Positions 1,724 through 36,464 of a stretch of 64,000 bases of DNA are shown one piece after another (the stretch's first letter is position 1; each line of letters opens with the position of its first letter). The notes beneath the pieces were generated by a model. That model searched no databases. It was given only the letters and a program-made list of their open reading frames with translations, and was not told the DNA's origin. A program made the position numbers and the translations under genes. Source of the stretch: Candidatus Paceibacter sp. (GTDB lineage: Bacteria; Patescibacteriota; Patescibacteriia; Magasanikbacterales; UBA922); contig DYFM01000005.1 of assembly GCA_020725175.1 (NCBI GenBank), forward strand, positions 1,855 to 65,854. Direction: 5' to 3'.

Positions 1724-2305
1724 ATGGAAGGTATGGAAGTATATATTGATGAATCAGGAATTCATAAATTTTCCGGTTATAGTGTTGTTTGTTTTGTTTA
1801 TGTACAAACTGATGGAGTAAAAGAAGTAGAAAAAGCACTGATAAAAGTTGAAAATTTACTTGGAATTAGAAAGTTTCGTTGGTCCGATTTTGGTTCCAAA
1901 CGAGGATGGGTGGTACGAGAAAGTTTTATTCGTCATATAATACCACTACCGTTTCTTTTCAATATTATATATTTTCAAAACCCTATCGCATTTCATTCTG
2001 CTTTTGAGCATGTTCTACATTCTGTTATTCAGCATGATAGAATAAGGAAAATCATTATTGATGGTAAAAAATCGAGAACGTATTCTCGGCGCATAAAAAA
2101 TGTACTACGTAAACATAACATTTCTGTGAAAAAAGTAGTTATGGCAAATGATGGGGGTACTCCAGGGTTACGATTAGCAGATGCTCTTGCCGGGTTATAT
2201 CGATCACATATGGAGAAACCAACGAGCAAAACAAATGATCTGATAAGTTTAATCACTCGTAACAACAAAAAACCGTCCATTATGGACGGTCAGATTGCCC
2301 GGTAG
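1724..2305 (+). CDS. DUF3800-domain protein
   Basis: N-terminal VYIDESG and C-terminal LRLADALAG motifs are typical of DUF3800. The start lies 4 nt after the translin-like gene. Confidence 0.5.
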   Translation: MEGMEVYIDESGIHKFSGYSVVCFVYVQTDGVKEVEKALIKVENLLGIRKFRWSDFGSKRGWVVRESFIRHIIPLPFLFNIIYFQNPIAFHSAFEHVLHSVIQHDRIRKIIIDGKKSRTYSRRIKNVLRKHNISVKKVVMANDGGTPGLRLADALAGLYRSHMEKPTSKTNDLISLITRNNKKPSIMDGQIAR

Positions 2306-2467
2306 TTTGGAAGTCTTCCAAACTCTCCCCATACGGCGGATTTGTCCCGGGTTCTTGTTCTAGATAAACTATATCATTATTTAAGAAGATTGTCAATCAT
2401 TATGTCTCGATACATGTGCTGTGACTTAGACAATTAGCCAAAACCCTCTATTTCCTAAAATTAGAAA

Positions 2468-4757: not shown

Positions 4758-4797
4758 ATCCGCCGACAGTCCCCACCCAAGGCGGACACATGCTGCG
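4758..4797. repeat. GC-rich hairpin repeat (CCGCC ... CCACCCAAGGCGGACA), copy 2
   Basis: Shares the identical 16-mer ccacccaaggcggaca with the copy at 2883-2905. Confidence 0.5.
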
Positions 4798-4919
4798 GGG
4801 AAATTCATTACATGCTAGATATTACAAACAACAATTAATTCAATTAACCTCACTATTCTAATTAACCAATAAATTCATAAACAATAAACTCATTTATCAA
4901 ATAAACTAATATCTCTTTT

Positions 4920-6232: not shown

Positions 6233-6718
6233 TTATTCTGCTGTGTGTAACATAATTCCCTTATCTCTCGGTAAACTTTTTTCTATATCAATCACTCGTT
6301 GGTTGAGAATCGGATGAAGGATGTCTGGTTCAATGTCTTTGAGTGGTGTCATGACAAAGAGTCTTTCGTGCATGCGAGGGTGGGGGATGGTGAGATGCTC
6401 GGTATCAAGCACTAGATCATCGTACAAAAGAACGTCGATATCAATGGTTCGCGGACCATTTTTTATGAGTCGTATACGTTTCATATCAAGCTCAATTGCT
6501 TGAGTGGCTTCCAAGAGTTCATCTGGATAGAGAGTGGTATCAAGTTTTACGACGCAGTTGAGAATCCATGGTTGATTTGTGTATCCAATCGGTTCAGTTT
6601 TGTAGAGTGGAGATACGGTTACAATGGTTCCAAGTTCACCAAGGCGTCGTACTGCGTCACGAATTTGCGATTCTGGCTTTCCTACATTACTACCAAGTCC
6701 TAAATATACTGTAGCCAT
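6233..6718 (-). CDS. folK: 2-amino-4-hydroxy-6-hydroxymethyldihydropteridine pyrophosphokinase (HPPK)
   Basis: VYLGLGSN, DIDVLLYDD and HPRMHERLFV are the HPPK signatures. Confidence 0.85.
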   Translation of the reverse strand: MATVYLGLGSNVGKPESQIRDAVRRLGELGTIVTVSPLYKTEPIGYTNQPWILNCVVKLDTTLYPDELLEATQAIELDMKRIRLIKNGPRTIDIDVLLYDDLVLDTEHLTIPHPRMHERLFVMTPLKDIEPDILHPILNQRVIDIEKSLPRDKGIMLHTAE

Positions 6719-7780: not shown

Positions 7781-7802
7781 CAATAAAAAAAATGTGGAGT
7801 TC

Positions 7803-7835
7803 TCCGCCCAAGGCGGATCCGCCTCGGGCGGAGAT
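7803..7835. repeat. Tandem GC-rich hairpins (TCCGCC-CAA-GGCGGA and TCCGCC-TCG-GGCGGA)
   Basis: Two adjacent short GC stems related to the CCCAAGGCGGA repeat family. Confidence 0.45.
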
Positions 7836-7857
7836 CCTCCGAGGTGGCTCAATCGGG

Positions 7858-7883
7858 ATAACGTGCAGGTCGTGGGTTCTTTG
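7858..7883 (+). repeat. Partial duplicate of the tRNA-Thr 3' half (taacgtgcaggtcgtgggttc)
   Basis: A 21-nt exact match to the anticodon-stem-to-T-stem segment of tRNA-Thr lies about 80 bp downstream of the gene. There is no acceptor stem. Confidence 0.5.
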
Positions 7884-8017
7884 AAAATACGAATTCGCCT
7901 CGGGTGGAAATCTATATTCTCGACTCAAAGAAGTTATTCACACGTTTAGACTTTCTAAACGTGTTTTTGTTCTAGGAGAAAAAAGGGAAATGTGGTATAC
8001 TTTGTTTTGTAAATCAA

Positions 8018-8085
8018 AAATCATAAATCATAAATCCAAAGTTGTGTTGTTGATTTTAGATTTATGATTTTAGATTTATGATCTC
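8018..8085. promoter_or_regulatory. Long imperfect inverted repeat immediately upstream of ftsE; candidate operator
   Basis: The arms atcataaatcataaatc and gatttatgattttagatttatgat flank a short spacer. The repeat ends 4 nt before the ftsE start codon. Confidence 0.4.
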
Positions 8086-8088
8086 ACA

Positions 8089-8769
8089 ATGATTACTCTC
8101 AATAACGTCTCAAAATATTATACCAAAGATAGTGTAGGGCTTCGTGATGTGCATCTGCATATTGATGCGGGTGAGTTTGTGTCTGTGGTGGGGCAAAGTG
8201 GAACAGGGAAAACTACTTTGGTAAAGCTCCTAATAGCCGAAGAGCGTCCAACTTCAGGTCAAATTATTATTGGTAGTTGGGATGTGACTCATATTCCACA
8301 TCGCGATGTGCCGTTTTTACGTCGTCAAATCGGAGTAATTTTCCAAGATTTTAAACTACTACAAAAAAAGACTGTTGCGGAAAATGTAGCGTTTGCGCTT
8401 CAGGTAGCAGGGGAGCGACCAAAACGTATTCGAGAGGTTGTTCCGCGAGTACTCGACATTGTAGGCTTGAAGCATAAAGCAGACCGTTACCCTGATCAAA
8501 TTTCCGGAGGAGAACAGCAACGAGTGGTTATTGCTCGGTCACTTGTTCATCGTCCAAAAATTTTAGTGGCAGATGAGCCAACCGGAAATCTCGATACAAT
8601 CAATTCACATGAAATTATTGAAATACTTAAAAAAATTAATGAGTTTGGAACAACCATTCTTCTCGTGACACACAATCGAGATATCGTGAACCAGCTTCAA
8701 AAGCGGGTGGTTACCATTCATGATGGTCATATTGTGTCCGATGAAGAAAAAGGGTCGTACCGACTGTGA
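8089..8769 (+). CDS. ftsE: Cell division ABC transporter ATP-binding protein FtsE
   Basis: Walker A GQSGTGKTT, ABC signature LSGGEQQRV, Walker B ILVADEPTGNLD. Confidence 0.85.
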   Translation: MITLNNVSKYYTKDSVGLRDVHLHIDAGEFVSVVGQSGTGKTTLVKLLIAEERPTSGQIIIGSWDVTHIPHRDVPFLRRQIGVIFQDFKLLQKKTVAENVAFALQVAGERPKRIREVVPRVLDIVGLKHKADRYPDQISGGEQQRVVIARSLVHRPKILVADEPTGNLDTINSHEIIEILKKINEFGTTILLVTHNRDIVNQLQKRVVTIHDGHIVSDEEKGSYRL

Positions 8770-8850
8770 CTAAGTATACTACGTCTGCTAAGTGGCTTAG
8801 TCAACTAAGTCAACTCAGAAAACTCAGATAACTCAGAATCAGAAACAGCT

Positions 8851-9759
8851 ATGATCACTTTCTTTCGAGCTATAAAATTTGCTTTTCAAGACATGGGAAG
8901 AAACCTGAGTTTATCCCTCATGACGGTATTTATTTTGGTATTGATGCTTTTATCCATGAATACTCTTCTTATAATACGAACCTTGACTACTGAAGCAACA
9001 TCGTCTATCAAGGATCAGCTTGATATTAGTATCTACTTTAGAGAAGAAACGACCGATGAGCAGGTGGAGGAAGTACGAAAATATTTGGAAACATTTCCCG
9101 AAGTGGTGGAGTTGACAGTCAAAAGTAGAGATGAAGTACTGTCGGAATTTCAAGCAAATTATGAAGGAAATAAGGATGTTCTTGATGCACTTGCTGAACT
9201 TGATGAGAACCCACTTGGGGCAACGATTATTGTAAAAACCAAAGACCCAATTGATTATGAAAAAATCATTGCGTCACTGACGGTCCCTGAGTACAAAAAT
9301 ATCATTGTGGATAAGCCATTTGAAGACAGTAAGACTGCTATTTCTCGTATTGATATTATTACAAAACAGGTGGAGAGATTTACCATTGCTCTCAGTGCAT
9401 TTTTTGCTTTTATTGCTTTTCTCATTATTTTCAACACGATTCGGGTGTCTATTTTTACCCAAAGAGTAGAAATTAACATTAAAAAGTTGGTAGGCGCGAC
9501 AAATTGGTTTATTCGTTCCCCATATGTTATTAGTGCCTTTATTTTCAATCTAGTGAGTGTGGGAATCGCAACTGCAATTGTCTACTACTCTGTAGGTTTT
9601 CTTGATCCCTATACAAGCGTTATTTTTGGTTCAAGCAATATCTTGACAAATTACTACAATTCGCATATACTGATGCTGCTTGGAATTCAGTTTGTGGGTG
9701 TTCTTCTTTTGACTAGTACCACTAGTTGGTTGGCAATGAGAAGACATTTAAGAGTATGA
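8851..9759 (+). CDS. ftsX: Cell division permease FtsX
   Basis: Four transmembrane helices with a large periplasmic loop, plus the conserved KLVGATNWFIRSPYV segment. It is adjacent to ftsE. Confidence 0.8.
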   Translation: MITFFRAIKFAFQDMGRNLSLSLMTVFILVLMLLSMNTLLIIRTLTTEATSSIKDQLDISIYFREETTDEQVEEVRKYLETFPEVVELTVKSRDEVLSEFQANYEGNKDVLDALAELDENPLGATIIVKTKDPIDYEKIIASLTVPEYKNIIVDKPFEDSKTAISRIDIITKQVERFTIALSAFFAFIAFLIIFNTIRVSIFTQRVEINIKKLVGATNWFIRSPYVISAFIFNLVSVGIATAIVYYSVGFLDPYTSVIFGSSNILTNYYNSHILMLLGIQFVGVLLLTSTTSWLAMRRHLRV

Positions 9760-9830
9760 CTAAGTCTTCTGAGGAGGCTGAGTTTCTGAGTAACTGAGTT
9801 GAAATATTCTTAATTTTAGGTAAAAAAAGT

Positions 9831-10193
9831 ATGGGGGGTACGGCCAATTTTAAGAATTTGTTTGTTTATCAGTGTTCATTCAAAAATGCCCTAGAGATAT
9901 ATCGTTTCTCTCAACAGTTGCCTCAATACCTACGATATGATATTGCAGATGACCTGAGAAGAGCAGCTAGATCAGTCCCTTCCAATATTGCTGAAGGATA
10001 TGGAAGGAATAAATCAAATGCTGATATTGTAAACTTTTTACGAACTTCGTTGGGATCGAATGATGAAGTGGTGTTTAATCTAGAGTTTTTAAAAGGATTA
10101 TCCTTGATTAACGAAGAGCAGTATCAACATTTTACAGGTCAAAGCAAACTTATTGGGTCGGGCTTACAAAAATTAATACAGTCACTTTCCTAG
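9831..10193 (+). CDS. Four-helix-bundle protein (TIGR02436 / 23S rRNA intervening-sequence protein family)
   Basis: NIAEGYGR motif and an overall ~120-aa helical pattern. Confidence 0.65.
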   Translation: MGGTANFKNLFVYQCSFKNALEIYRFSQQLPQYLRYDIADDLRRAARSVPSNIAEGYGRNKSNADIVNFLRTSLGSNDEVVFNLEFLKGLSLINEEQYQHFTGQSKLIGSGLQKLIQSLS

Positions 10194-10308
10194 TTTTTAC
10201 ATTTGTTGATTTTGATAGAAGTCAACAAATATGAAAAACTAAGAGAACATAAAGTTCTTAGTGAACTCAGAAGACCTAGTTTACTCAGGTCACTCAGAAA
10301 ACTCAGAC

Positions 10309-10379
10309 TCGGGGATCGTCTAATGGTAGGACTCCAGGTTTTGGTCCTGGCTATCGGGGTTCGAATCCCTGTCCCCGAA
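10309..10379 (+). tRNA. tRNA-Gln (anticodon TTG)
   Basis: Acceptor TCGGGGA/TCCCCGA, anticodon stem CCAGG/CCTGG with loop TTTTGGT, T-arm CGGGG TTCGAAT CCCTG. Confidence 0.7.
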
Positions 10380-10513
10380 CGAGGCTATTTGCTCATCTTT
10401 TTTCAGATTGACAATGGCCTGTAAATATAGTAAACTAATGTCGAAGTTTTTAGTGCGCTAAGTTATCTGAGTAGGCTCAGTCAACTTAGAACTCTTAGAA
10501 AACTCAAAAACAT

Positions 10514-10677
10514 TCGGAAGTAGCTCAGTGGTAGTCCCGACAGTGGTCGGGAGTATATCCTCAAGAGCTATATACGGATGAGAATTACAACATATTCGGA
10601 AGTAGCTCAGTGGTAGTCCCGACAGTGGTCGGGAGTATATCCTCAAGAGCTATATACGGATGAGAATTACAACATAT
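10514..10677 (+). repeat. Two tandem 82-bp units, each beginning with the first ~22 nt of tRNA-Asn
   Basis: catattcggaagtagctcagtggtagtcccgacagtggtcgggagtatatcctcaagagctatatacggatgagaattacaa appears twice with period 82. The third unit is the genuine tRNA gene. Each unit contains the hairpin tcccgac/gtcggga. Confidence 0.75.
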
Positions 10678-11087
10678 TCGGAAGTAGCTCAGTGGTAGAG
10701 CAGTTGGCTGTATATCACGGAATGCGTGTTTTATTACGCATACGACTAGCAGCTCTCGATAGGAATATCGGGATGAAGAACAAGGTGAATTGCTGGAAAC
10801 CCTATCAGGTTATGCTGAGGGTAATCAGCAGCCAAGCCCTATATCTCTACGGAGATCAGTAGGGAAGGTTCAGAGACTATCCTGTAATGGGAGTAGGCTG
10901 GTACATGTATCAGTCGAAGCGCCTTGCACCCCATCGCTTTCGAGCAATCGAAATTTGGCGAGGGTGAAGATATAGTCCACGCTTTCCTGACTATATTGTC
11001 GGGACGATAAACCGTTTCGGTTGTCGCTGGAAACAGGAGATATTACGTGTAACCAATTGGTCGTGGGTTCGAATCCCACCTTCCGAG
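10678..11087 (+). tRNA. tRNA-Asn (anticodon GTT) interrupted by a group I intron; exons 10678-10711 and 11050-11087
   Basis: The exons fold as acceptor TCGGAAG/CTTCCGA with discriminator G, D-arm GCTC AGTGGTA GAGC, anticodon stem GTTGG/CCAAT, and T-arm GTGGG TTCGAAT CCCAC. The anticodon loop becomes CT GTT AA when the exons are joined after U35. U1-A72 with G73 fits Asn identity; Thr-UGU is the alternative if the splice site is two nt upstream. Confidence 0.65.
10712..11049 (+). ncRNA. Group I self-splicing intron in the tRNA-Asn anticodon loop, ~338 nt, no endonuclease ORF
   Basis: The conserved core elements are present: P (aattgctggaaa), Q (aatcagcagc), R (gttcagagacta) and S (aagatatagtcc). 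The 5' exon ends in U and the intron ends in G. Confidence 0.7.
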
Positions 11088-11311
11088 CAAAAAAGGGTGA
11101 GCAGGTTCTAACGAGCCTGTTTTCTTGTATATGGAGCCATTTTTGAGAAGTTCGGAAGTGAGAAAAAAAGCACTAACTATTTTTTGCTTCAAATAAGACA
11201 TACTTAATTTATCTCGGTGACTAGTGTCGGTGGGGTTCGGACTACGTGTACATAATAAACAAAATAAGAGTATCATTACTCTTATTTTGAAAAATCATTG
11301 TTTTGGTTAAT

Positions 11312-12079
11312 TTATGTGACTTTTCTCAGCACTTCCCATCGGTCATTTCCTTGATTTGTGTAAAATCCTATTTTGAGAGTCTCATTAAAAATTCTTTGTA
11401 CAAACTCGTTATACTCATCTGCATTTCTATCAAATCGTGGCATTCCTTGTGGATCTAAATATGTACTCCACAAATCTGCTAATCTTCTAAAAGTATTTAC
11501 ATCAATAAGATGCGCATCACTGCTTATTTGTGCCATATCTATATTTCCATTTCCTCTAACTACATATATTTGCTTTATTGAATTTCTCCCATTTGAAAAA
11601 TGATTATATATATCCGCCAAGGAAAAAGAATATTCAGCGTTGTGGCTATGTAGTACCGCAGAAATTACTTCGTCTCGGTAAACAATGAGTCCGGAGGGCG
11701 TAGTTATTTCAGTTCGTTTCAACGGTGCAGAAATCGGAGCGCTATATTTCTCTCCTTGTATCAGTGGTCCAAGTTTGAGGTTTCCCTCATGATCGGCCAC
11801 TACCGAACAACTAAATTCAGTATCATATGAATCATGCAGGTAACGTAACTCATCAGCAATTCGAGAAAAATCGCTTGTCGGCCCGTATTCTGCAATGTCG
11901 TCGTAGGCCTCATCCATGAAATCTAATGGTCTATCAATGAGAACAGAGCTGGGCAAATTTTCAAAACTGGGGGGGGTTTCCAGAATAGAATGTCTTAATA
12001 GATCGTGTGCATCCACAAGTTGTTCACTTCTTCTATCTCTGGAATCTCCTCCAAATCTCTTTGATTCGGAATATGGCAT
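11312..12079 (-). CDS. Hypothetical protein, no recognisable domain
   Basis: 255-aa ORF flanked by a hairpin terminator at 11265-11290. It is the first gene downstream of the tRNA cluster. Confidence 0.45.
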   Translation of the reverse strand: MPYSESKRFGGDSRDRRSEQLVDAHDLLRHSILETPPSFENLPSSVLIDRPLDFMDEAYDDIAEYGPTSDFSRIADELRYLHDSYDTEFSCSVVADHEGNLKLGPLIQGEKYSAPISAPLKRTEITTPSGLIVYRDEVISAVLHSHNAEYSFSLADIYNHFSNGRNSIKQIYVVRGNGNIDMAQISSDAHLIDVNTFRRLADLWSTYLDPQGMPRFDRNADEYNEFVQRIFNETLKIGFYTNQGNDRWEVLRKVT

Positions 12080-12325
12080 ATGGTTATTTTATGAATTATA
12101 GATTTTGATATGGATAAAATATATCAAATCTTGTTGTTATAGGCAAATTTTTGCACTTGATAAATTTAAGGTAGGTGGATTTACAATCAAAAGATTTTGG
12201 AACTTGTTCCTATATTCGAGCAAACACTCTTCCATACACACTGGTATGGTAAAGACAAAAACATACTCAAAAGAGTATGTTTTTGTTATACTGTACTTGC
12301 TACTTAAACCAGTATTTATTTCTGT

Positions 12326-13197
12326 ATGAATAAAAGAGAATGCAAACAAAAAATACTTGCTGTATATCCAGGGATGGTAAATAGAAGTTTTGAGTACATA
12401 ACAACTGGTAGTGACGATGATGTGGTTATTGTCGGTAAAAAAAATGTTTTTACGTTTCCAAAAAACAAGCCTGGATGTCGTGAAAAATTTGTAACTGAAA
12501 TTAATATACTACCCTTGTTTCAACCTATTGTTAGTCTGTCAATTCCAAAATTAATCTATATTGCCCCGGATATTTCTTTTGGCATGTATAAATATGTGCC
12601 AGGTGTACCATTTACAAAAAAATTGGCCTTGACACTGACTGCAAGACAAAAAACCGCAGCTGCAAAAAAAATTGCCACGTTTCTTTCTGCATTGCATAGC
12701 TTTTCTGCGAACAAAGCCAAGAAGCATGGAGTAACTGATGCATGGTCTGAACGTGACGCACGCTCTTTCTATCTGAAACGAGCAAGGACTGTTTTCAAAA
12801 CACTGAGCTATGATTTTGGTATTGTGCAACGCTTGTTCCGAAAGTACCCGCTCAGCGAAACAACTTACCAAGCTGTTGTTCATCAAGATTTTACCAGCGA
12901 TCATATCTTATTTGACCCAGCAAAAAAGAAGATAATTGTGTTATTGACTTTGGTGATGTACAGATTGCGGATCCGGCAGTTGATATGAGTCGCCTCTGGG
13001 AGTATGGTGAAGATTTTATAGATTTGGTGTTACAATTTTATAAACGAGTAGACATCGATATAAAACAACGAAGTTACCGATGGTGGATATATCACAATAT
13101 AAACTTGATTGAATATGGGTATGAGAAAAAAAAGATTTCTATGATGAAACGAGGTTACAGGAATTTGAAACATATGTATAAAAACCGCTCTCAATAA
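12326..13197 (+). pseudogene. Aminoglycoside/choline-kinase-type phosphotransferase (APH family) broken by a frameshift in an A6 tract
   Basis: Frame 1 carries the Brenner motif HQDFTSDHILFDP. After gcaaaaaag (about 12920-12930) the +1 frame carries VIDFGDVQIADPAVD, the DFG-type motif. Reading A7 instead of A6 would fuse the two ORFs 12326-12988 and 12985-13197. Confidence 0.6.
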
Positions 13198-13228
13198 TGA
13201 AAGCGGTTTTTATGTTTAACATGTATCA

Positions 13229-16200
13229 TCACCCTCCCGTCACATAATACACAATCTCCACCGGCTTCACACTATATTCTCCGGTAATCATCAACGTCAG
13301 AGGTCCTTCGGTAACGTCAGTTGGGATGATATAGGTATCATTTGAGAAACTTCCACTTGTATTAGCATTGAACGAATGAACCACCTCCTCGCCGGTTCGA
13401 TCGGTTCGAATTTGAATTGGTTCGTTTGGCAGATAGCCGCTACCGATAAATTGTATAGCAGTACCAGGTGCCCCGGCGTATGAGCCAAGTTCTGCCCCGA
13501 GATATACTTCTCCGTGGATAAAGTTTGCTGTAGCTGTGCTACCGGTAGAGGCTCCGGTAGCAGACACGGTTCGTTCACCGGACAGAAAACCGGGGACAGT
13601 GGTGTTGAAGATAAGGTTGCCAGATTCATCGGCAGTAGTTGTACCAAGTAGAAGTCCGTCAAACGTCACTATAACATCTTCACCAGCTCCAAAACCCATA
13701 CCGCTAACAGTAAGCGCTTCTCCACCAAAGCCATAGTAGTGTGATAGTTCAATTCCGGAAGTAAGAGGGGCTACTGTGATTGGTACGGAAACAATAGTAG
13801 CACTGAGTTGTCCGGAAAAAGTAAAAATTACTTCTGTCGCTCCATACGGAATCTGTAATTTGGTATCTGCAAAGGTACCAAATTCATTGGTAGAAAGGGT
13901 AGAAAGAGGTGTGTCGTTTAGTGTAACACGGATCTCTTCACTGGCTGCAAAACCGCTACCTTCAAATGTAACATATGATCCGGCTGGAGTATACCATGTG
14001 TTTGGAGTTACTTCAGGAGTAAAACCGGATAGAGTGATTGTTACCTCTGAAAACGCGCCACTGTTTGTTCCTGAAATGATAAACGTAGCTCCACCGGTAG
14101 TCGTAACCGGGATAGTAATAGGCTCAGTATCAATTTCTCCGGCTGTACTTGAAACTGTTTCAGCAAGTATTTCATCATTTAGAGAAATGGAAACAGGTTC
14201 TTCGCCGCTAAATCCGGTACCTGAGAAGGAGATCTGGCTTCCTGGAGCGGTATACCAGGTACTTGGGGTAACTTGTGGAGTAAATGGTGCAAGCGTAAGA
14301 GTCGTGATGCCGGTCGCGTTACTCATGCCTCCGGTTATCTTTACCGGTACGGTTGAGTTTGATAGACCAAGTGGAATGACTACCGGGGTAGGAGAGACGG
14401 TTCCGTCATGTTCTGCATAGGCATTGATTGACGTTTCACCAACTTCAATTGTTACCGGCTCATTTGGAGCAAACCCAACTCCTGAAACATGTACTGGTGT
14501 TCCGGGGAGAGCATAGTATGAATCTAGTTCAATATATGGAGTAAGTGCGGCAATAGTAACCGTAACTTCAGATGTACCACCACTTTCTTGCCCGATAAAG
14601 ACATACGTTTCTGAGCCATCAGATTCGAAGCCGGTTGTAACGGTTAGGTTCTCAAAATGTCCGTCAATATCTGCCTGTGTTGTTTCTAACATGTTTCCAT
14701 CATTCCTCATGATAATGTTTTCACCGGGAGCAAATCCATCTCCGGAAAAAGTGAGGGGGCTTCCGGCTGGAAGATACCATGTCTGTGGCGTAACCATCGG
14801 ATACAAGCTGCCGAGAGAAATTTCTAGTTTACTTTCTAATCCACTCTTCATTCCTGTTGCATGAATTGTAATACGTGATCCGGAAAGGGGAGCGACAAAC
14901 GGCGCATTCTCGATAAGCACGCCTTCCTCATCGGTTTCAACTTCTATCGGTGCTCGATCATTCATACGAATTTCAACAATGTCCTCTGGAGCAAATCCGC
15001 TACCACTTACCGTAAATGGTTCTGCTGGAAGAATGTAATAAGAAGAAGGGGAGAGAGTGGGGTAAAAGGTGCCAATACTTAGTGATACAGTTGCTTTTGC
15101 TTGGCTCTCCTGACCTTCAAACCGCACTAGACGTGTTTCTTGCCAGGTGTAGGGAATAGTTATTGCCCCAGCTTCGGTAAATGCACCATCAACATCAGTT
15201 GTTATAGTAGTTAATAACTCTCCTGTTACATCGTCCATAACTTGCACCTCTTCATCCGTTCCAAATCCAGTTCCGGTAAATGAAACGTCTGTTCCGGGAA
15301 GAATATAATAGTTATTTGGTGAAACCTGGGGTGTAAATGGAGCAATGGTAATGAGTACAGTTGCTTCGGTTTTACTATTTGTTCCGGAAAGAACTATCGT
15401 GCGACTACTGTTTGACCAGGTAAAAGGAATGGTAAATGTTCCGGCAGTGAGAAATGTGCCGGTACTGTCTGAAGTAAATGAAGCGAGAGGTGTAGAATTG
15501 TTTCCTTCTGTTACCACAATCGTTTCACTATTCCCAAACCCGCTACCGGAAAAAGAAATGGTATGTCCAGCAATGTTGTGATAGCTTGATGGTTCAACGA
15601 GAGAATTGAACGAACCAATCGTGAGCGCAACCTCAGCTTGACCACCACTCGTTTGTCCAATGAGGGTAAATGTGCGAATGCTGTTTAGCCAATCATATGG
15701 AATGACAATTGCGCCGGCATCAAAAAAATTACCGTCTGAATCTGAGCTGAACGTTGCAATAGGTTCGGTGGGGTTACTGGTTTCGTACACGTCAATTGTT
15801 TCGTGGATTGCATACCCTCCACCGGAAAACATGAGCGTTTCTTCCGGAAGAAGATAGTGGGTAGAAGGAGTAACATTTGGAGTAAAGGTACCAATTGTAA
15901 TGTCTACCGAAGCCTCGGCATTACTCGTATTTCCTCGTAACGTAAACGTTTGCGATCCGGTCAGGCTGAGCGGAATAGGTATCGTACCGGCATCTGTAAA
16001 CGATCCATTTGCATCAGCCTGAATAGAGGCGAGTGGAGAGCCATCGTCTCCTTTGTAGACCTGTATTTCTTCATGGGTCGCAAATCCACTGCCGGAAAAA
16101 CTGAGTGATTGAGTAGGAAGCACATAATACGTGGACGGAGAAATACTCGGGAAAAAACCACCAACGTAAAAATAGTCAATGGTTGTTGCGGCAGAGGATT

Positions 16201-16765
16201 GCCCGGTAGCGGTGAGCTCATATGTACCAAATGCAATTGTGGGAACAGTAGCCGACGCGTCTTGAAATGAACCGTCTGCGTTGGCGGTGGTAATTCCTAT
16301 TTCTTTGCCTTGGATAGTAAACGAAATTGTTTCGTCTGGGGCAAAACCGTTTCCGTCAATTGAAAGTAGGCTGCCGGGAGTGTTATTTCCGGATACTGTG
16401 ATTGTTGGTGTGAACGGAACTATGTAATAGCTATTGCTTTGCAGCTCTTGTGTTTCAGACCCTTTGGCAAAGATGGGTAATGGGCCCTGTGGTGTATTAT
16501 CCGGAATATTAATTTGAACATTGAAAAAGCTATCCTCTCCGGCAGTTACGGTCGCAACTTCACCACTTTCCGGAGTAAACAAATACAGTGTTATCGTCTC
16601 TCCCGGTATCCAACCACCTCCTTGTACTTCAACCTCCGTGGCTGGGCCGCTAAAAGAGCTTAAGGTAAGATATGCGGCTGCTTGTATATATTGAAAAGGG
16701 ATAATTAGCATAAGACCGGCTACAGTTATAGCGGTTATGCGAAAGAAGAAAAGCCGTGTTCTCAT
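13229..16765 (-). CDS. Large secreted tandem-repeat protein (1178 aa; about 13 Ig-like/IPT-TIG-like repeats of roughly 85-90 aa)
   Basis: Signal peptide MRTRLFFFRITAITVAGLMLIIPFQYIQA, then repeated blocks such as PSTYY.LP...SFSGSGF...E.I.V. The region is noticeably richer in GC than its surroundings. Confidence 0.7.
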   Translation of the reverse strand: MRTRLFFFRITAITVAGLMLIIPFQYIQAAAYLTLSSFSGPATEVEVQGGGWIPGETITLYLFTPESGEVATVTAGEDSFFNVQINIPDNTPQGPLPIFAKGSETQELQSNSYYIVPFTPTITVSGNNTPGSLLSIDGNGFAPDETISFTIQGKEIGITTANADGSFQDASATVPTIAFGTYELTATGQSSAATTIDYFYVGGFFPSISPSTYYVLPTQSLSFSGSGFATHEEIQVYKGDDGSPLASIQADANGSFTDAGTIPIPLSLTGSQTFTLRGNTSNAEASVDITIGTFTPNVTPSTHYLLPEETLMFSGGGYAIHETIDVYETSNPTEPIATFSSDSDGNFFDAGAIVIPYDWLNSIRTFTLIGQTSGGQAEVALTIGSFNSLVEPSSYHNIAGHTISFSGSGFGNSETIVVTEGNNSTPLASFTSDSTGTFLTAGTFTIPFTWSNSSRTIVLSGTNSKTEATVLITIAPFTPQVSPNNYYILPGTDVSFTGTGFGTDEEVQVMDDVTGELLTTITTDVDGAFTEAGAITIPYTWQETRLVRFEGQESQAKATVSLSIGTFYPTLSPSSYYILPAEPFTVSGSGFAPEDIVEIRMNDRAPIEVETDEEGVLIENAPFVAPLSGSRITIHATGMKSGLESKLEISLGSLYPMVTPQTWYLPAGSPLTFSGDGFAPGENIIMRNDGNMLETTQADIDGHFENLTVTTGFESDGSETYVFIGQESGGTSEVTVTIAALTPYIELDSYYALPGTPVHVSGVGFAPNEPVTIEVGETSINAYAEHDGTVSPTPVVIPLGLSNSTVPVKITGGMSNATGITTLTLAPFTPQVTPSTWYTAPGSQISFSGTGFSGEEPVSISLNDEILAETVSSTAGEIDTEPITIPVTTTGGATFIISGTNSGAFSEVTITLSGFTPEVTPNTWYTPAGSYVTFEGSGFAASEEIRVTLNDTPLSTLSTNEFGTFADTKLQIPYGATEVIFTFSGQLSATIVSVPITVAPLTSGIELSHYYGFGGEALTVSGMGFGAGEDVIVTFDGLLLGTTTADESGNLIFNTTVPGFLSGERTVSATGASTGSTATANFIHGEVYLGAELGSYAGAPGTAIQFIGSGYLPNEPIQIRTDRTGEEVVHSFNANTSGSFSNDTYIIPTDVTEGPLTLMITGEYSVKPVEIVYYVTGG

Positions 16766-17057
16766 AGATTTTGTAATAAAAAAGAATACAGATGAGCTAT
16801 CCCGGTTTGGATGCTGCTATTTCTATTGTCCATATTTATGTAGCAATTGTCAAATTTTTTACTCTATGTGTATTTTTTTCAATATACTTGTTAATTTTTG
16901 CTTTTAGCCTATTACAGCCTGTTACTCTGTCCCAAGAAGGCAAATAAGACATGAAAGAAATGTGAATTTAAAGAAACCTTCTCATCTATACTTATTATTG
17001 CAGGGTTACAATAAAAAAAGATACCTGTGAAGTATCAATTAAAGACAAAAACTATTG

Positions 17058-17555
17058 TTATGCGCGTATCGAAAGTATACTAAATTTTTTTTCACTATCG
17101 CGAATGACAATACTACCGGTATCATGCGCTTTTTTCCCTAGTAGTGCCGCACCAATAGGCGAGGTATGAGAGATTATTCCTTGAGACGGATTTGTTTCTG
17201 AGGAGCCAAGAATTGTGAATGTTTTTTCTTCTCCATCGAGAAGAATGGTGACAGTACTGCCGACTTGTACTGTATCAGTTTGGGATAGAGTAATAATTTC
17301 CGCTCGCTTCAACTGTTCTTCAAGAACAAGAATACGACTGTTGATTCCCCGCAATCTTCCTTTGGCGAGTTGATATTCAACATTTTCTGAAAAATCACCT
17401 AGCTCTGCTAATCGAGATACTTCCAGTGTGGCAGGCTGTCTACGTTTGTATAAACTTTTTAGTTCATGTTCAAGTTCATCGTATTTCTCTTGTGTCATGA
17501 GCGGGTCCTGCCTTTGAGTCATGTATTTTCCAGGTTTTCGTTTGGGTAGTTGCAT
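17058..17555 (-). CDS. greA: Transcription elongation factor GreA, copy 1
   Basis: N-terminal coiled coil with ELGDFSENVEYQLAKGRL, and a C-terminal FKBP-like domain. The true start may be an internal ATG (MTQEKYDEL). Confidence 0.8.
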   Translation of the reverse strand: MQLPKRKPGKYMTQRQDPLMTQEKYDELEHELKSLYKRRQPATLEVSRLAELGDFSENVEYQLAKGRLRGINSRILVLEEQLKRAEIITLSQTDTVQVGSTVTILLDGEEKTFTILGSSETNPSQGIISHTSPIGAALLGKKAHDTGSIVIRDSEKKFSILSIRA

Positions 17556-17589
17556 ACATTGTATTAGTAGGGATCAAACGAATGAGGCG

Positions 17590-17630
17590 GATTACAACGA
17601 ATTCGTTATAATCCGTTCAATTCGATCAAT
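17590..17630. repeat. Palindromic element cggattacaacgaa/ttcgttataatccg; member of the AACGGAT-core family
   Basis: 14-bp near-perfect inverted repeat centred on AACGAATTCGTT. Confidence 0.45.
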
Positions 17631-17643
17631 CCGTGGTCTATTA

Positions 17644-18096
17644 TTATCGTACTTCAATTGTATCAACCACAGCATCTAGTAATTCCTTCATCTTTCGATC
17701 ATTCATTTGATAAAAAAGTTTTACCACGAATGATCCGGAAGCACCGGTGAGTGTTTTGATATCTTTGGGGATATTTCGGTCGGCATAGTCTTGTGTCTGC
17801 CCATCTTCTACACCAAATGGTAAGTCTTGTGCGTCAGAAGTTGAAACAATTTCGATACGTGAATTATCTCCTGTTATCAAAAGTATGTCTGTTTCTGGTT
17901 CACGTTCCACAACATACCCATCAGGATATTGAAATGTCATTGCGTCTGATGTGTATGAATGTTTCAATTTGTATATCTCAGCCTGGGTTGGTTCTGGGGC
18001 AGATTCATTGGAACTATCATTTCTAAACACAAAAAATGTAATGCTCGCAAGAATAATAATTCCCGATACAACCGGCAAAAAGATTTTTTTGTTCAT
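17644..18096 (-). CDS. Hypothetical secreted or membrane-anchored protein
   Basis: N-terminal transmembrane/signal segment MNKKIFLPVVSGIIILASITFFVF. Confidence 0.45.
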   Translation of the reverse strand: MNKKIFLPVVSGIIILASITFFVFRNDSSNESAPEPTQAEIYKLKHSYTSDAMTFQYPDGYVVEREPETDILLITGDNSRIEIVSTSDAQDLPFGVEDGQTQDYADRNIPKDIKTLTGASGSFVVKLFYQMNDRKMKELLDAVVDTIEVR

Positions 18097-18249
18097 ATCA
18101 AAATATTTGTTGAGAAGTAATAGATAAAAAATGCAGTAACCACACTTCCGCGGTAATCACTCATCAATCAGGACTACTCAGTAAACAAAACCAACTTAAC
18201 TTACTCCAAAAACTTAGCTTACCCAGAGAACTCAGAAAACCCAGTCAAC

Positions 18250-19125
18250 TTAGACTCTCTCCACCCAATGCACATCAACACCAACATCAAGTTCCAAAAA
18301 TACTTTCTTGTTGGTTGCTTGTTCCAGTTCTTTTCTCGCCATTTGACCAATTTCCTTGATTTTACTTCCGCGAGCACCGATAATCATGCGCTTGTATCGC
18401 TCTTCGTTGGTCAAAATCCGAGCAGAAATGACAAAGAGATCTGGTTTTTCCTCAACACTGTCTACCTCAACAGAAATAGAGTAGGGTACTTCCTTATCAA
18501 AAATTGAGAAGGTTTTTTCTCGAATTATTTCAGAAATCCAAAAGTGATGATCTACGTTCGTTAGCTGATCCTCCGGGTAGAGTGGCTCACCTTCAGGAAG
18601 AAGTTCAATAACTTTATCACGCAGTGGCTGTACATGACTGGCTCGAAGCGCAGAAACCGGAAGAACAGCATCAAAATCGTTGCCCCAAAATTCATAATCG
18701 GCTTGAAACGCGCGTTCACTACGAGATAAATCACTTTTGTTAATGACGAGTATTTTAGGTTTTTCCACATGACGAATCATACCATATACTGCTCGTTCTT
18801 CTTGACCTATTTCTCTGGTAGGATCTACGACATATACAATGACATCAATATCTTGCAGTGCCTCGTGAACTTTATTTGTTAGTTTGGCGGTAAGCGGATT
18901 TTTTCTATCTTTAAATACCCCTGGGGTATCCACAAAAATCGCTTGCCCGTGAGGAGTGTTCATGACTCCGTGTATGATATGGCGGGTCATTTGCGCACGA
19001 AAACTAGTGGCAGCAATTTTAGTGCCAACGAGTGTGTTCAATAGGGTAGATTTGCCCACGTTTGACCGACCGACGAGGACGACAAAGCCGGACTTTGGTT
19101 GGGGGGTTGTTTGTTCTTTCTTCAT
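18250..19125 (-). CDS. era: GTPase Era
   Basis: G1 motif GRSNVGKST, G3 DTPG, G4 NKSD, and a C-terminal KH domain. Confidence 0.9.
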   Translation of the reverse strand: MKKEQTTPQPKSGFVVLVGRSNVGKSTLLNTLVGTKIAATSFRAQMTRHIIHGVMNTPHGQAIFVDTPGVFKDRKNPLTAKLTNKVHEALQDIDVIVYVVDPTREIGQEERAVYGMIRHVEKPKILVINKSDLSRSERAFQADYEFWGNDFDAVLPVSALRASHVQPLRDKVIELLPEGEPLYPEDQLTNVDHHFWISEIIREKTFSIFDKEVPYSISVEVDSVEEKPDLFVISARILTNEERYKRMIIGARGSKIKEIGQMARKELEQATNKKVFLELDVGVDVHWVERV

Positions 19126-19130
19126 AGGTT

Positions 19131-19302
19131 TTACGGATTACGGATAATACGGAGCTACGGATATTGCTTATCAAAAGTGTGTATGAAAATAGGGTGTGTA
19201 TTTAGTATAAAGTAACTAGCTTATTTTACATAATTTATTTTTGAACTTAATCTTACAATTTCCATCAAACATCCGTAGCTCCGTATTATCCGTAATCCGT
19301 AA
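19131..19302. mobile_element. 172-bp element bounded by 32-bp perfect inverted repeats (ttacggattacggataatacggagctacggat); MITE-like or a divergent-promoter operator
   Basis: The left arm at 19131-19162 is the exact reverse complement of the right arm at 19271-19302. An AT-rich ~108 bp core separates them. It lies between the era and rplI starts. Confidence 0.5.
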
Positions 19303-19377
19303 CGTCATATTCAAATGTGGATATTATTATACCTAACTATTGCCAAAAAATCAACCTCGGGGTATACTGAATGGTAT

Positions 19378-28619: not shown

Positions 28620-28781
28620 CGGAAGTACAAGTTTACAGAACAAAAGTACCATCTAGCGGTACTTTTCTGTTTTTACAAAATATGATACACTCATGTAGTT
28701 CATTGATTCCTAGGAATTATTTCGCCCCTCCAATGAGAAACGTACAATCAACCAATAAACTATTAAACTAATAAACCAATT

Positions 28782-30246: not shown

Positions 30247-30295
30247 ACTGAGAGGAAATATTATTCTTTTAATTTTATGTGTGGGTGAATAGACC

Positions 30296-30352
30296 TCGGA
30301 TATAACAGATGAAACGGATCAGTTCTAATCCGTTTCATCTGTTATATCCGTG
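30296..30352. repeat. Perfect 23-bp-arm palindrome (cggatataacagatgaaacggat ... atccgtttcatctgttatatccg); AACGGAT-core family
   Basis: Inverted repeat with a 9-nt loop, upstream of the Rrf2 regulator promoter. Confidence 0.55.
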
Positions 30353-30380
30353 TTGCTATTATTTATATAAGTGTAATGAT

Positions 30381-32307: not shown

Positions 32308-32391
32308 CTAAACATTGTCATCCTGAATGTAGCCGAAGCGATGTGAAGGATTTGTCAAAAATAAAAAGAAAATAATTGATAGAGCTTCGGA

Positions 32392-32455
32392 TTTAACGGA
32401 TTGGACGAATTAGAACGGATCAGTTAATATCCGTTTCATCCGTTAAATCCGAAGG
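32392..32455. repeat. Palindromic element cttcggatttaacggat ... atccgttaaatccgaag; AACGGAT-core family
   Basis: Long imperfect inverted repeat between sufB and sufS. Confidence 0.5.
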
Positions 32456-32524
32456 TCTATTCAACCCTTAAAAATGTAGAAGCCCGCCGTGATTCTCTCG
32501 AATGGCGGCGGGCAGTGCTCACCC

Positions 32525-33895: not shown

Positions 33896-33897
33896 AC

Positions 33898-33968
33898 CGC
33901 GGATTTAACGGATGGAACGAATTAAAACGGATCCGTTCCAATCGGTCTAATCTGTTAAATCTGCGGTC
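33898..33968. repeat. Palindromic element gaccgcggatttaacggat ... atctgttaaatctgcggtc; AACGGAT-core family
   Basis: Long inverted repeat between sufS and sufU. Confidence 0.5.
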
Positions 33969-33983
33969 TATTAAGCATAATCT

Positions 33984-34376: not shown

Positions 34377-34430
34377 ACGGATATTAACAGATCCCTTCTA
34401 ATCAGTTGCACTCGTTAAATCCGAAGATCT
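34365..34430. repeat. Imperfect palindromic element (gacgaattaaacggat ... cgttaaatccgaagatc); AACGGAT-core family
   Basis: Located between sufU and sufC. It shares the ttaaacggat and atccg words with the other copies. Confidence 0.4.
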
Positions 34431-34443
34431 ATCAACATTTTAT

Positions 34444-35172
34444 ATGCTACAAACAAAAAATCTCCATGTATCAGTAGAAGAAAAAGAAATTCTTCAAAAC
34501 ATCAATCTCTCCATTAAGCCCGGTGAACTTCATGTAATTCTCGGCCCAAACGGATCTGGAAAATCTACACTTGCCAATAGTCTTATGGGACATCCATCAT
34601 ATAACGTCACAGATGGTAAAATAGAGATTGATGGTATTGATATCACACATGAACAAGTGAATAAGCGAGCCAAGGCTGGACTATTTCTTTCGTTACAAAA
34701 CACACCGGAAATTCAAGGTGTTACTGTTTCAAATTTTTTACGAACAGTGATCAGTAGCAAAACAGGTGAGAAGCTTCATCCGGTAAAATTTTATAAGACC
34801 CTACAAGAAAAAATGAAGGAGCTTCAAATAAATCCTGAGTTTGCAAAACGGTACATTAATGTCGGATTTTCCGGTGGAGAAAAGAAACGGCTAGAGATTC
34901 TTCAACTGTTGCTCCTTAACCCAAAATATGCTATTCTCGATGAAACAGATTCTGGGCTTGATGTTGATGCACAAAAAATAGTAGCTGAAGGAATAACAAC
35001 ATTTCATGGAGCAGGAAACGCGGTATTACTTATCACTCATCATCATAAACTGTTAGATTATCTGAATCCTGATATGGTACACATTATGAAAGAAGGCAAA
35101 ATCATGAAAACCGGCACCGCTGAACTAGCTAAAACAATCTTACAACAAGGTTTTTCCAATCTAACCATATGA
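34444..35172 (+). CDS. sufC: Fe-S cluster assembly ATPase SufC
   Basis: Walker A GPNGSGKST, ABC signature FSGGEKKR, Walker B ILDETDSGLD. Confidence 0.9.
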   Translation: MLQTKNLHVSVEEKEILQNINLSIKPGELHVILGPNGSGKSTLANSLMGHPSYNVTDGKIEIDGIDITHEQVNKRAKAGLFLSLQNTPEIQGVTVSNFLRTVISSKTGEKLHPVKFYKTLQEKMKELQINPEFAKRYINVGFSGGEKKRLEILQLLLLNPKYAILDETDSGLDVDAQKIVAEGITTFHGAGNAVLLITHHHKLLDYLNPDMVHIMKEGKIMKTGTAELAKTILQQGFSNLTI

Positions 35173-35456
35173 TCACAAAAGAACGAATTATTGAGGAACT
35201 TGAAACCATTATCGATCCGGAAATTGGTCTTGATTTGTGGACACTTGGACTCATTTACAACATCAATATCGAAAGTGAAGAAAAAGTCATTATTACTCTC
35301 ACATACACAACCCCCCTGTGCCCATATGGTCCAGCTATCAATACTGAGGTCACTGATGCCATGCGGTCACTCGGCTTTAAGGCAGTAGAAATTGATCTGA
35401 CGTTTGATCCGCCTTGGAAACCACCGGAGAATCTGCGAGAGATGATGGGGGTGTAA
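35169..35456 (+). CDS. DUF59/MIP18-family Fe-S assembly factor (SufT-like)
   Basis: DPEIG.....LGLIY and TLTYTTPLCP are the DUF59 signature. It overlaps the sufC stop by 4 nt. Confidence 0.65.
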   Translation: MITKERIIEELETIIDPEIGLDLWTLGLIYNINIESEEKVIITLTYTTPLCPYGPAINTEVTDAMRSLGFKAVEIDLTFDPPWKPPENLREMMGV

Positions 35457-35461
35457 TACTT

Positions 35462-35872
35462 ATGAGTACAAAATGCAGTACACCCGCATTTCGTATTTCA
35501 CGTGTAGACAGAATTATGAAAGTTCAAAAAAAAGTTCGCGTCTGCTCCTCGCGTTCCTGCACGGTATTTGGGAGTAAAAGAATCATGCAGAGTATTACAG
35601 ATGCTACTGGCTTGAAACCAGGAGAAAAAGATGATACAATGGATCTTGATTGGTGTGGTTGTTTGGGGTACTGTGCCAAGTCTCCAAATGTTCAGATCAA
35701 TGATGATCAGTATATTTTTACTGCTAAACCAGATACTATTATGCAAGATATTCAACAAGGAGGCGTCAACATGGTCGGAAAAGAACTTGATATCGAACGA
35801 GTATATCAAGATTTATTTAAAGATGATATATTGGAGCAACCATTACCAACAGTTGATATTTCAGAGGAGTAA
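35462..35872 (+). CDS. Thioredoxin-like [2Fe-2S] ferredoxin (NuoE-like)
   Basis: The four Cys in CSSRSC ... CGCLGYC fit the CxxxxC ... CxGxC pattern of the thioredoxin-like [2Fe-2S] ferredoxin fold. I placed the start at the internal ATG (MSTKC). Confidence 0.5.
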   Translation: MSTKCSTPAFRISRVDRIMKVQKKVRVCSSRSCTVFGSKRIMQSITDATGLKPGEKDDTMDLDWCGCLGYCAKSPNVQINDDQYIFTAKPDTIMQDIQQGGVNMVGKELDIERVYQDLFKDDILEQPLPTVDISEE

Positions 35873-35945
35873 TACACAGTGTAGCGCAAATAGTTAGGAC
35901 TGCACGTTAATTTAACCTACCGCAGTGTTACAATTGTAATGTTCT

Positions 35946-36266
35946 ATGCTAGATACAGCAAATAACAACACCCCACACAACGACGTGATACTTCCAAACG
36001 ATTTACCGGATGATATCTCCCAAAACGTTCGCAAAGAAGGAAAGATTCGACGTATTGTTGTAGACAGACAAGCCTGTATTGGAGCTAGATCTTGTGTATT
36101 GGTAGCCGAAAAAGTGTTTCAAATGGATGACCAGAATCTCGCGTACGTCACTACTGATGTTGACAGTACCGATGAAGATACGATCAAAATGGCCGCTGAA
36201 GTGTGTCCGGTACTAGCAATTCATTTGTACGACAAAGAGGGGAATAAGCTGTTTCCGGAAGAATAA
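35946..36266 (+). CDS. Single-cluster ferredoxin ([3Fe-4S]/[4Fe-4S])
   Basis: CIGARSC ... CP Cys pattern and a ~100-aa length. Confidence 0.55.
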   Translation: MLDTANNNTPHNDVILPNDLPDDISQNVRKEGKIRRIVVDRQACIGARSCVLVAEKVFQMDDQNLAYVTTDVDSTDEDTIKMAAEVCPVLAIHLYDKEGNKLFPEE

Positions 36267-36275
36267 TATATGGTA

Positions 36276-36305
36276 ACAAATCTAACACGACCGCTTATTC
36301 GGTCG
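36276..36305 (+). terminator. Rho-independent terminator after the ferredoxin gene
   Basis: acacgaccgcttattcggtcgtgtttttt. Confidence 0.65.
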
Positions 36306-36371
36306 TGTTTTTTGTTTAATGGGAAGTGGGCGGGCGGGTACTCGGCAACGTGCTTTTCCCCGCCCCCCTGC

Positions 36372-36464
36372 CTAGATCGACTGGTGGCACTGCCACCAGT
36401 CGACCAGGCATAGGATCACCGCCAACACTGCGTTGACGGTGATCACCCACAGGAGGATAACCAT
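36372..36464 (-). CDS. Candidate small hydrophobic peptide (30 aa: MVILLWVITVNAVLAVILCLVDWWQCHQSI)
   Basis: Perfect Shine-Dalgarno sequence AGGAGGTGAAAAATG. The SD and start codon sit inside a hairpin (cacaggagg ... cctcctgtg). The gene lies in a 170-bp GC-rich islet that contains a 27-bp perfect palindrome (tcgactggtggcactgccaccagtcga). The overlapping 61-aa track ORF has no ribosome-binding site. Confidence 0.3.
   Translation of the reverse strand: MVILLWVITVNAVLAVILCLVDWWQCHQSI

Follow-up and report, generated by a model that had tools for sequence, protein, structure and literature searches.

Among the systems closest to the element described here is Coxiella's intervening sequence (IVS), which is 428-444 nt long, contains the open reading frame (ORF) of S23p, is bounded by terminal inverted repeats that pair into a stem of 28 bp, and is cut out by RNase III; the S23p protein of Xanthomonas is a toroidal homopentamer (PMC4990558). 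Thousands of genomes have genes annotated to the corresponding '23S rRNA intervening-sequence protein' (IVP) family, to which no function is assigned, and its rRNA-borne relatives are textbook oddities. Here we analyze five intergenic arrays of a short word, CTNAG, in a stretch of 64,000 nt from contig DYFM01000005.1 of Candidatus Paceibacter sp. (the window; all positions refer to this stretch), two of which flank an IVP gene. We consider it on balance probable that these arrays are the repeat-built arms of an IVS-like selfish cassette and of its ORF-less derivatives. In the literature on repeats of Patescibacteria and the candidate phyla radiation, on CTNAG, and on the PF05635/S23 protein we found no description of periodic arms around IVP genes.

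Structure of the CTNAG arrays

The arrays (A1 to A5) lie among the features listed below, of which ftsE, ftsX, era and tRNA-Gln had been named correctly in the original prediction, a reading of this DNA made without database searches.

8089-8769: ftsE (Pfam)
8770-8850, plus strand: array A1, eight units CTAAGTATA CTACGTCTG CTAAGTGG CTTAGTCAA CTAAGTCAA CTCAGAAAA CTCAGATAA CTCAGAAT, then CAGAAACAGCT
8851-9759: ftsX (Pfam)
9760-9805, plus strand: array A2, CTAAGTCTT CTGAGGAGG CTGAGTTT CTGAGTAA CTGAGTTGA, the first unit adjoining the ftsX TGA; it is the 5' arm in the IVP cassette
9831-10193, plus strand: IVP gene, encoding a 120-aa four-helix-bundle protein of the '23S rRNA-intervening sequence protein' / S23p family
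10194-10238, plus strand: AT-rich inverted repeat, TTTTTACATTTGTTGA...TCAACAAATATGAAAAA, lying within the cassette after the IVP stop codon and before A3
10239-10308, plus strand: array A3, CTAAGAGAA CATAAAGTT CTTAGTGAA CTCAGAAGA CCTAGTTTA CTCAGGTCA CTCAGAAAA CTCAGAC; 3' arm of the IVP cassette
10309-10380: tRNA-Gln (tRNA call)
10408-10436: sigma-70-like promoter match TTGACA-17-TAAACT, upstream of A4
10446-10511, plus strand: array A4, ORF-less two-arm copy with the nested pairs TTTAG/CTTAG, CTAAG/CTTAG and CTGAG/CTCAG
18177-18257, minus strand: array A5, nine units in exact 9-bp register, on the minus strand CTAAGTTGA CTGGGTTTT CTGAGTTCT CTGGGTAAG CTAAGTTTT and so on
18250-19125, minus strand: era (Pfam)

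All five sites exist where the original prediction had placed them, and the core word on which it was centered is enriched far above chance: TCAGAAAACTCAGA with at most two mismatches occurs six times against 0.98 expected, a count of six or more being reached in none of 100 shuffles. This enrichment over shuffled sequence, on which the prediction had been staked beforehand, does not separate the interpretations weighed below. The actual unit is a quasi-palindromic CTNAG box that recurs every 9 (sometimes 8) bp, and not every 7 bp as the term 'heptad' had implied, with 5-9 boxes per array. The histogram of distances between CTNAG words has peaks at 9, 18, 27 and 36 bp (14, 13, 7 and 6 pairs, respectively); the 14 pairs at 9 bp compare with 0.47 +/- 0.69 in 300 dinucleotide shuffles, and the eight runs of three with 0.003 in shuffles.

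Alignment in register of the units from all five arrays (n=37) yielded 27 exact CTNAG boxes and seven with one mismatch. The information content of the five positions is 2.15 (C), 1.10 (T), 0.13 (N), 1.43 (A) and 1.68 (G) bits, while the four bases of the spacer carry about 0-0.6 bits; neither the middle base nor the spacers are constrained. As in cooperative operators, the 37 units are short repeats in contiguous runs whose contact positions are conserved. Near-identical units with evenly spread variation, of the variable-number tandem repeat type, were not observed, the variation being limited to the center base and the spacers, and Tandem Repeats Finder (TRF) reported only three-copy fragments of the arrays. 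No Rfam family was found over the arrays at either gathering or permissive thresholds, and no target-site duplication was seen at their borders.

The arrays all lie within 9.5 kb, and no further CTNAG array was seen elsewhere in the window or within the 10 kb past its end. An independent Logan assembly is 100% identical to the window across 7850-10550, showing that A1-A4 are not an assembly artifact. The order of units and the spacers can be aligned pairwise between A1 and A3, A1 and A4, and A3 and A5, and the 3' half of A1 is homologous to the end of A3. The matching order of units and spacers indicates that the arrays are diverged copies of one element and did not originate independently, which agrees with one of the earlier suggestions, that of a short dispersed repeat.

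When read along local transcription, every array opens with CTAAG(T); A1, A3 and A4 continue into ACTCAG with A-rich spacers, whereas A2 and A5 continue into CTGAGT with T-rich spacers, that is, the complementary form. The 'opposite orientation' proposed for A5 needs to be qualified: A5 is opposite only relative to its minus-strand neighbors, and on the plus strand of the window it reads like A1, the inverted copy being A2 (CTGAGT). The stop codon of the upstream gene abuts or overlaps the start of A1, A2 and A5, twice in the form TGA|CTAAGT; in A5 the first unit holds the era stop codon, the TAA lying inside CTTAG at 18249-18253, and about 80 nt separate the array from the start codon of the next gene. 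A1 makes up the entire ftsE-ftsX spacer, the ATG of ftsX being at 8851. A3 and A4 stop 2-6 nt short of the 5' ends of the tRNAs. A4 lies between the sigma-70-like promoter match (10408-10436) and the 5' end of tRNA-Asn, and stops 2 nt before the repeated tRNA 5' end (10514).

The region next to A4 has features of its own. An 82-bp unit is present at 10512-10698 in 2.3 copies with 100% identity, each copy opening with the first approximately 22 nt of the tRNA-Asn gene, and the independent assembly breaks within this repeat. The actual tRNA-Asn gene follows the repeat and is interrupted by a group I intron (10722-10999, Rfam); by inspection, the anticodon of the host tRNA is GUU.

Three simple readings of the arrays were set aside. 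A device providing stop codons in all frames does not fit, by inspection, with the 9-bp period, which confines stops to one frame. Avoidance of a restriction site (CTNAG is the DdeI site) was considered as well; the depletion in coding sequence has a z-score (z) of only about -2.3, the same as for other palindromic 5-mers. An origin or terminus element was dismissed with the GC-skew switch at about 35-49 kb, far from the arrays. The region at about 35000-49500 itself, with the peak of cumulative GC skew and a change of gene orientation from plus to minus near 49.5 kb, looks like a replication terminus region.

The IVP cassette and its folding

The protein encoded between A2 and A3 matches PF05635 (E 6.8e-26) and TIGR02436 (E 2.8e-26), and has structural matches to PDB entries 2GSC (Xanthomonas; E 2e-9) and 2RLD, with five chains in each. 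It is the only IVP gene in the window. About 30 homologs with 49-69% identity were found, the named ones being from other Magasanikbacteria. Together with both arms the gene forms a cassette of 549 nt (9760-10308), which occupies precisely the interval from the ftsX stop codon to the first base of tRNA-Gln (10309), up to which A3 runs, and has the same orientation as its neighbors. No convincing promoter was found within the cassette.

The stretch CTCAGAAGACCTAG of A3 is complementary to the stretch CTAAGTCTTCTGAG of A2 at 13 of 14 positions, spacer included. When the RNA of positions 9757-10310 is folded, the A2:A3 closing stem is present in both the minimum free energy and the centroid structure (z -2.63, equaled by one of 100 shuffles). 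The pairing of the flanks comprises 20 base pairs (duplex z -5.0), the number of paired bases ranging from 20 to 33 overall. Inside the cassette the AT-rich inverted repeat forms a 13-bp helix, over which Rfam gives only weak miRNA-like noise.

A4 alone folds into one hairpin of -21.0 kcal/mol (z -4.04; none of 200 shuffles was as good), whereas A1, A2, A3 and A5 alone are unstructured, with z from -0.7 to +0.7 (A1 -0.33, A5 +0.73). This identifies A4 as a two-arm copy without an ORF and the other arrays as single arms.

The same locus in relatives

The best FtsX relatives are about 62% identical, and the named ones belong to Candidatus Magasanikbacteria or Patescibacteria. In relatives whose FtsX is 58-62% identical, ftsE, ftsX and tRNA-Gln are tightly packed: the ftsE-ftsX spacer is 6 bp in L124, and tRNA-Gln follows ftsX after about 20-25 nt in L124 and L125. 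Neither CTNAG pairs at 9 or 18 bp nor an IVP gene at this locus were found in L123, L124 and L125. The absence of both the gene and the arrays from the syntenic locus of relatives shows that the cassette is an insertion.

IVP loci in other genomes

The comparison covered eleven IVP loci at nine distinct insertion sites (L261 and L264 share a site, and L268 and L270 are the same locus), which come from Patescibacteria, Omnitrophota, Bacteroidota and Cyanobacteria. In all eleven the IVP gene is co-oriented with both neighbors, usually inside a recognizable operon (ybaB|recR, sdhA|sdhB, sufA|sufB, cas10|cmr3). Complementary flanks that beat shuffles were found at nine of the eleven loci, with duplex z from -3.0 to -9.1, and at eight of these nine each arm repeats a word about four times with a period of 7-9 bp, the word being specific to the lineage. 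The number of units per arm is 3-4 in the six loci in which it was counted. The arm-IVP-arm layout was found at eight loci besides the window, as follows:

L262: CTAAGT words, 9 bp; z -9.1, 31 bp; arms TAAGTAG CTAAGTTGG CTAAGTTAC CTAAGTTGC before the ATG and ACTTAGATA ACTCAGGT ACTTAGTTA ACTTAGCT ACTTA after the stop codon
L263: CTNAG words; the 5' arm has CTAAGTCTTCTGAG in common with A2
L261: ybaB|recR; CTRGTT/AACYAG, 8 bp
L264: ybaB|recR; GAAGTT/AACTTC, 9 bp
L266: Omnitrophota, T2SS-F|pseudopilin; GCGGATA/TATCCGC, 7 bp; z -6.5
L268/L270: Flavobacterium, sdhA|sdhB; 7 bp; z -4.1
L272: Picosynechococcus plasmid, cas10|cmr3; GGAGATAA, 8 bp
L273: Riemerella plasmid, sufA|sufB; 7 bp; duplex z -7.9

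In L262 the outer 14 nt are perfectly complementary, the spacers too. The word shifts between lineages, yet the arms stay complementary, which shows that whole arms covary. No transposase, be it a REP-associated tyrosine transposase (RAYT) or one of an insertion sequence (IS), and no recombinase was found beside the eleven loci, except for an unrelated ISL3 in L271. The IVP gene is also wedged in CRISPR-Cas operons of cyanobacterial plasmids, between cas10 and cmr3 in Picosynechococcus (L272) and between cas6 and cas4 in Anabaena sp. 90 (L274).

Proposed mechanism and alternative explanations

The explanation that we favor is as follows. The arms of the cassette, being short runs of one word with a fixed 8-9 bp period and mutually reverse complementary, would zip into a 20-30 bp stem in a read-through transcript, so that the cassette is looped out and the ends of the flanking genes are brought together. 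By analogy with the S23p-carrying IVS of 23S rRNA, the stem would be a likely substrate of RNase III, and the cut would free the cassette RNA and leave the host genes unharmed. A4 would be a copy with both arms and no gene (a mini-hairpin), and A1 and A5 may be single arms left behind by such elements or copied from them, with A1 also able to pair with A2 across ftsX. The structural part, in which the arrays are the arms of an IVP cassette, stands on much firmer ground than a mechanism through RNase III; cutting, the formation of the stem in RNA and the way in which the element moves are inferred.

Several observations weigh against this explanation. A1 and A5 have no adjoining partner arm or ORF, and their status as remnants is presumptive. 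No clear complementarity of the arms is seen at two of the eleven IVP loci, L271 (z -2.0) and L274 (z -0.3). Owing to the palindromic core of CTNAG, every arm of the CTCAG type pairs with every arm of the CTGAG type, and the strongest flank pairing of the 64 genes in the window is that of A1 with A2 across ftsX (-41.8 kcal/mol; the mean is -17.4 with an sd of 6.3); it is therefore chiefly homology to IVP loci elsewhere that supports the partnership of A2 and A3. The arm duplexes are equally good in sense and antisense and the use of G-U pairs is not skewed; with equal energies on both strands, the pairing could take place in DNA and not in RNA, and the arms may have a role at the DNA level. 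A search of the 64-kb window for a gene signature of RNase III found none, and Rfam detected no rRNA in the window, so that the cassette is no classical IVS. Finally, a simple stem model leaves the periodic words in the arms unexplained.

Some of these observations are shared with an alternative in which the arms act as double-stranded DNA, that is, as terminal inverted repeats composed of several protein sites, perhaps for a pentameric IVP that mobilizes, regulates or blocks transcription through the cassette, RNA pairing being incidental. The sequence C-T-n-A-G with a free center is typical of a dimer on two half-sites, about four evenly spaced words are present per arm at many loci, and the word tracks the IVP lineage, as would be expected from co-evolution of a protein with its sites. 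The equal sense and antisense duplex energies fit this alternative as well, as does the precedent of StbA and stbDR, where dispersed arrays of short direct repeats are bound cooperatively by one small protein; moreover, relatives of the IVP crystallize with five chains per entry and have been described as toroidal homopentamers (PMC4990558). However, no recombinase chemistry is known for a four-helix bundle, the cassettes at the loci examined are unaccompanied by a transposase or recombinase, their constant co-orientation with the host operon is unexpected for a pure DNA transposon, the period ranges from 7 to 9 bp among homologous proteins, and the S23p protein of Coxiella is apparently not produced (PMC4990558). 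We regard a DNA-level role of this kind as possible but doubtful.

It is unlikely that the arrays are operators of an unlinked cooperative repressor that acts on ftsX, on the tRNAs and on the gene lying downstream of era, in the manner of a MetJ, omega or StbA regulon. Tandem short-repeat operators do have precedents, the boxes are contiguous with a palindromic core, and A4 lies directly downstream of a good promoter match, but the position relative to promoters is inconsistent, with A1 between two cistrons, A2 and A5 behind stop codons, and A4 downstream of the only good sigma-70 match. The same inconsistency speaks against transcription-factor sites or sigma-factor upstream elements, which had been suggested for these words, and so does the finding that the arm-gene-arm layout travels with the IVP into unrelated operons of other phyla with a different word each time. 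Relatives manage with array-free spacers of 6-25 bp, and the neighboring ORFs of unknown function (11-18 kb) gave no informative Pfam match and no DNA-binding domain, leaving no candidate for the repressor among them. CTNAG is not specifically avoided elsewhere, as coding sequences hold 90 copies where 113 +/- 9 are expected, much as for other palindromes of five bases, and the tight linkage of arms to the IVP in other phyla would be unaccounted for. Still less likely are functionless neutral minisatellites arising by replication slippage in AT-rich spacers. Such an origin would suit the richness of the intergenic DNA of the window in periodic words of 7-9 bp and the other short arrays that relatives carry before start codons, but the units are not near-identical, four positions being kept while the center base and the spacers vary, and TRF finds nothing longer than its three-copy fragments. 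Furthermore, the copies are homologous as whole elements, and the inverted two-arm layout recurs around one gene family in four phyla.

Returning to the IVS-like cassette, arm-gene-arm units in ordinary operons suggest that IVP genes may be passengers of a stem-forming insertion, which the host would tolerate because it can be looped out of, or excised from, the transcript. This would also account for a class of repeats, built of short periodic words and lying between the genes of reduced genomes, which could otherwise be mistaken for regulatory motifs. In a broader form, which we put forward only tentatively, TIGR02436 genes would be the cargo of widespread undescribed elements dwelling in operons, namely intervening sequences of mRNA and tRNA precursors in at least four phyla. 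Their arms would consist of about four copies of a lineage-specific word of 7-9 nt, either read one per subunit by a pentameric IVP ring or giving stems for RNase III that tolerate shifts in register; in both cases the element would loop out of the host transcript, and the many ORF-less hairpins with periodic arms in these genomes would be non-autonomous elements derived from it. Of greatest interest is why the arms are built of periodic words.

Other periodic-word repeats

Other repeats built of short periodic words were noted in the window and elsewhere. A scan of a genome collection for five CTNAG boxes at 9-bp spacing returned at least 120 loci from many phyla, almost all of them unrelated 9-bp coding repeats; the useful ones were a few intergenic arrays in Bacteroidales. 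In these metagenome-assembled genomes TCTNAGA boxes with a strict 9-bp period and a variable center base lie between unrelated housekeeping genes (L074:1197-1237 and 6237-6278; L110:1624-1673; L004:2824-2873; L084:94-134). Two of four such arrays are strong hairpins (z -5.7 and -4.1) and two are single arms, mirroring A4 as compared with A1 and A5.

Two further scans were uninformative. A metagenome scan with ACTNAGNNNACTCAGAAAACTCAGA gave 41 loci, mostly perfect (AACTCAGAA)n, and the contig of the window was not among them; three loci were inspected, of which L221 and L238 proved to be low-complexity coding sequence, while L218 has an insert that keeps the frame of a folC-like gene. A viral scan with a 16-mer gave 91 single matches, likely due to chance. 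The insert in L218 (2350-2530; Ga0209542_10111680) is a palindrome of about 170 bp with a left arm of (AACTCAGAA)n and a right arm of (TTCTGAGT)n; it lies in frame just past the P-loop of the folC/Mur-ligase-like gene, adds about 55 low-complexity residues, and has repeats of a tRNA 3'-fragment nearby.

The window contains a second family of ORF-less intergenic palindromes, with ends AATAGACC...GGTCTATT and arms of (A)CGGAT / ATCCG(T) words with a period of about 9 bp, that is, of the same design as the CTNAG arms with a different word. Five of them, all except 34377-34443, were folded (z -3.8 to -10.1). These palindromes and the remaining repeats and motifs of the window and of its relatives are:

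17556-17643, 30285-30365, 32388-32480, 33896-33983, 34377-34443 and 44655-44740: (A)CGGAT palindromes
8005-8088: AAATCAT four times (7-bp period) and an inverted copy, directly upstream of the ftsE ATG; hairpin z -4.5; this periodic-arm palindrome overlaps a weak promoter match
19126-19314, between the divergent genes era and rplI: TTACGGAT-type words four times at one end of the spacer and, some 110 bp away at its other end, an inverted copy (ATCCGTA)
28746-28780 and 4863-4893, as well as L123:50-87 and L124:9281-9314: tandem arrays of 8-11 bp (AATAAACT, TTAGATGAA, ATTGTTTTATA) immediately before start codons; by eye, nothing resembling a Shine-Dalgarno sequence was noticed ahead of those start codons that were inspected
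2890-2915, 4760-4785 and 7800-7830: motif CCACCCAAGGCGGAC (or CCGCCCAAGGCGGA) in three intergenic regions
2288-2361, minus strand: Rfam DUF3800-II RNA motif (54.5 bits), adjoining a DUF3800-like ORF

Comparison with known systems

Arrays of contiguous short repeats serve as operators or centromeres in several systems, the omega heptads of pSM19035 and the metboxes of MetJ among them. As in stbDR of plasmid R388, bound by StbA, the CTNAG words form runs of 2-10 contiguous short repeats that occur in either orientation at several intergenic places of one replicon; unlike stbDR, where 9-bp sites with 2-bp spacers give an 11-bp cycle, the CTNAG cycle is 8-9 bp and the positions are not promoter-centered. 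The Avd protein of diversity-generating retroelements belongs to the same family of four-helix-bundle folds, and distant IVP matches also hit PF22296 (bAvd). Avd is a pentamer with affinity for nucleic acids. In contrast to Avd systems, neither a reverse transcriptase nor a pair of template and variable repeats is present near the IVP gene of the window.

Repetitive extragenic palindromic (REP) sequences, bacterial interspersed mosaic elements (BIMEs) and hairpins resembling miniature inverted-repeat transposable elements (MITEs) are likewise small, multi-copy, strictly intergenic and hairpin-forming (here A4 and the ACGGAT family), and lie between co-transcribed genes. They differ from the CTNAG copies, which have no RAYT or transposase and no visible target-site duplication, include one copy with a protein gene, and are mostly single arms that do not fold alone (only A4 does), the arms being internally periodic.

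In anatomy the cassette matches the S23p-bearing IVS in the 23S rRNA of Coxiella burnetii and Leptospira. Both have a PF05635/TIGR02436 ORF, complementary termini forming a stem of 20-30 bp, a length of about 430-550 nt, a patchy distribution among relatives and a dependence on host transcription. The cassette differs from these IVSs in its location between a protein gene and a tRNA gene instead of helix 9, 25 or 45 of 23S rRNA, in arms that are short-word arrays with a fixed 9-bp period and not simple inverted repeats, and in the ORF-less and single-arm copies nearby; cleavage by RNase III is proposed for it by analogy only. By the same analogy, the cassette may well work like an IVS, while standing apart from the classical ones in where it resides and how its arms are built.

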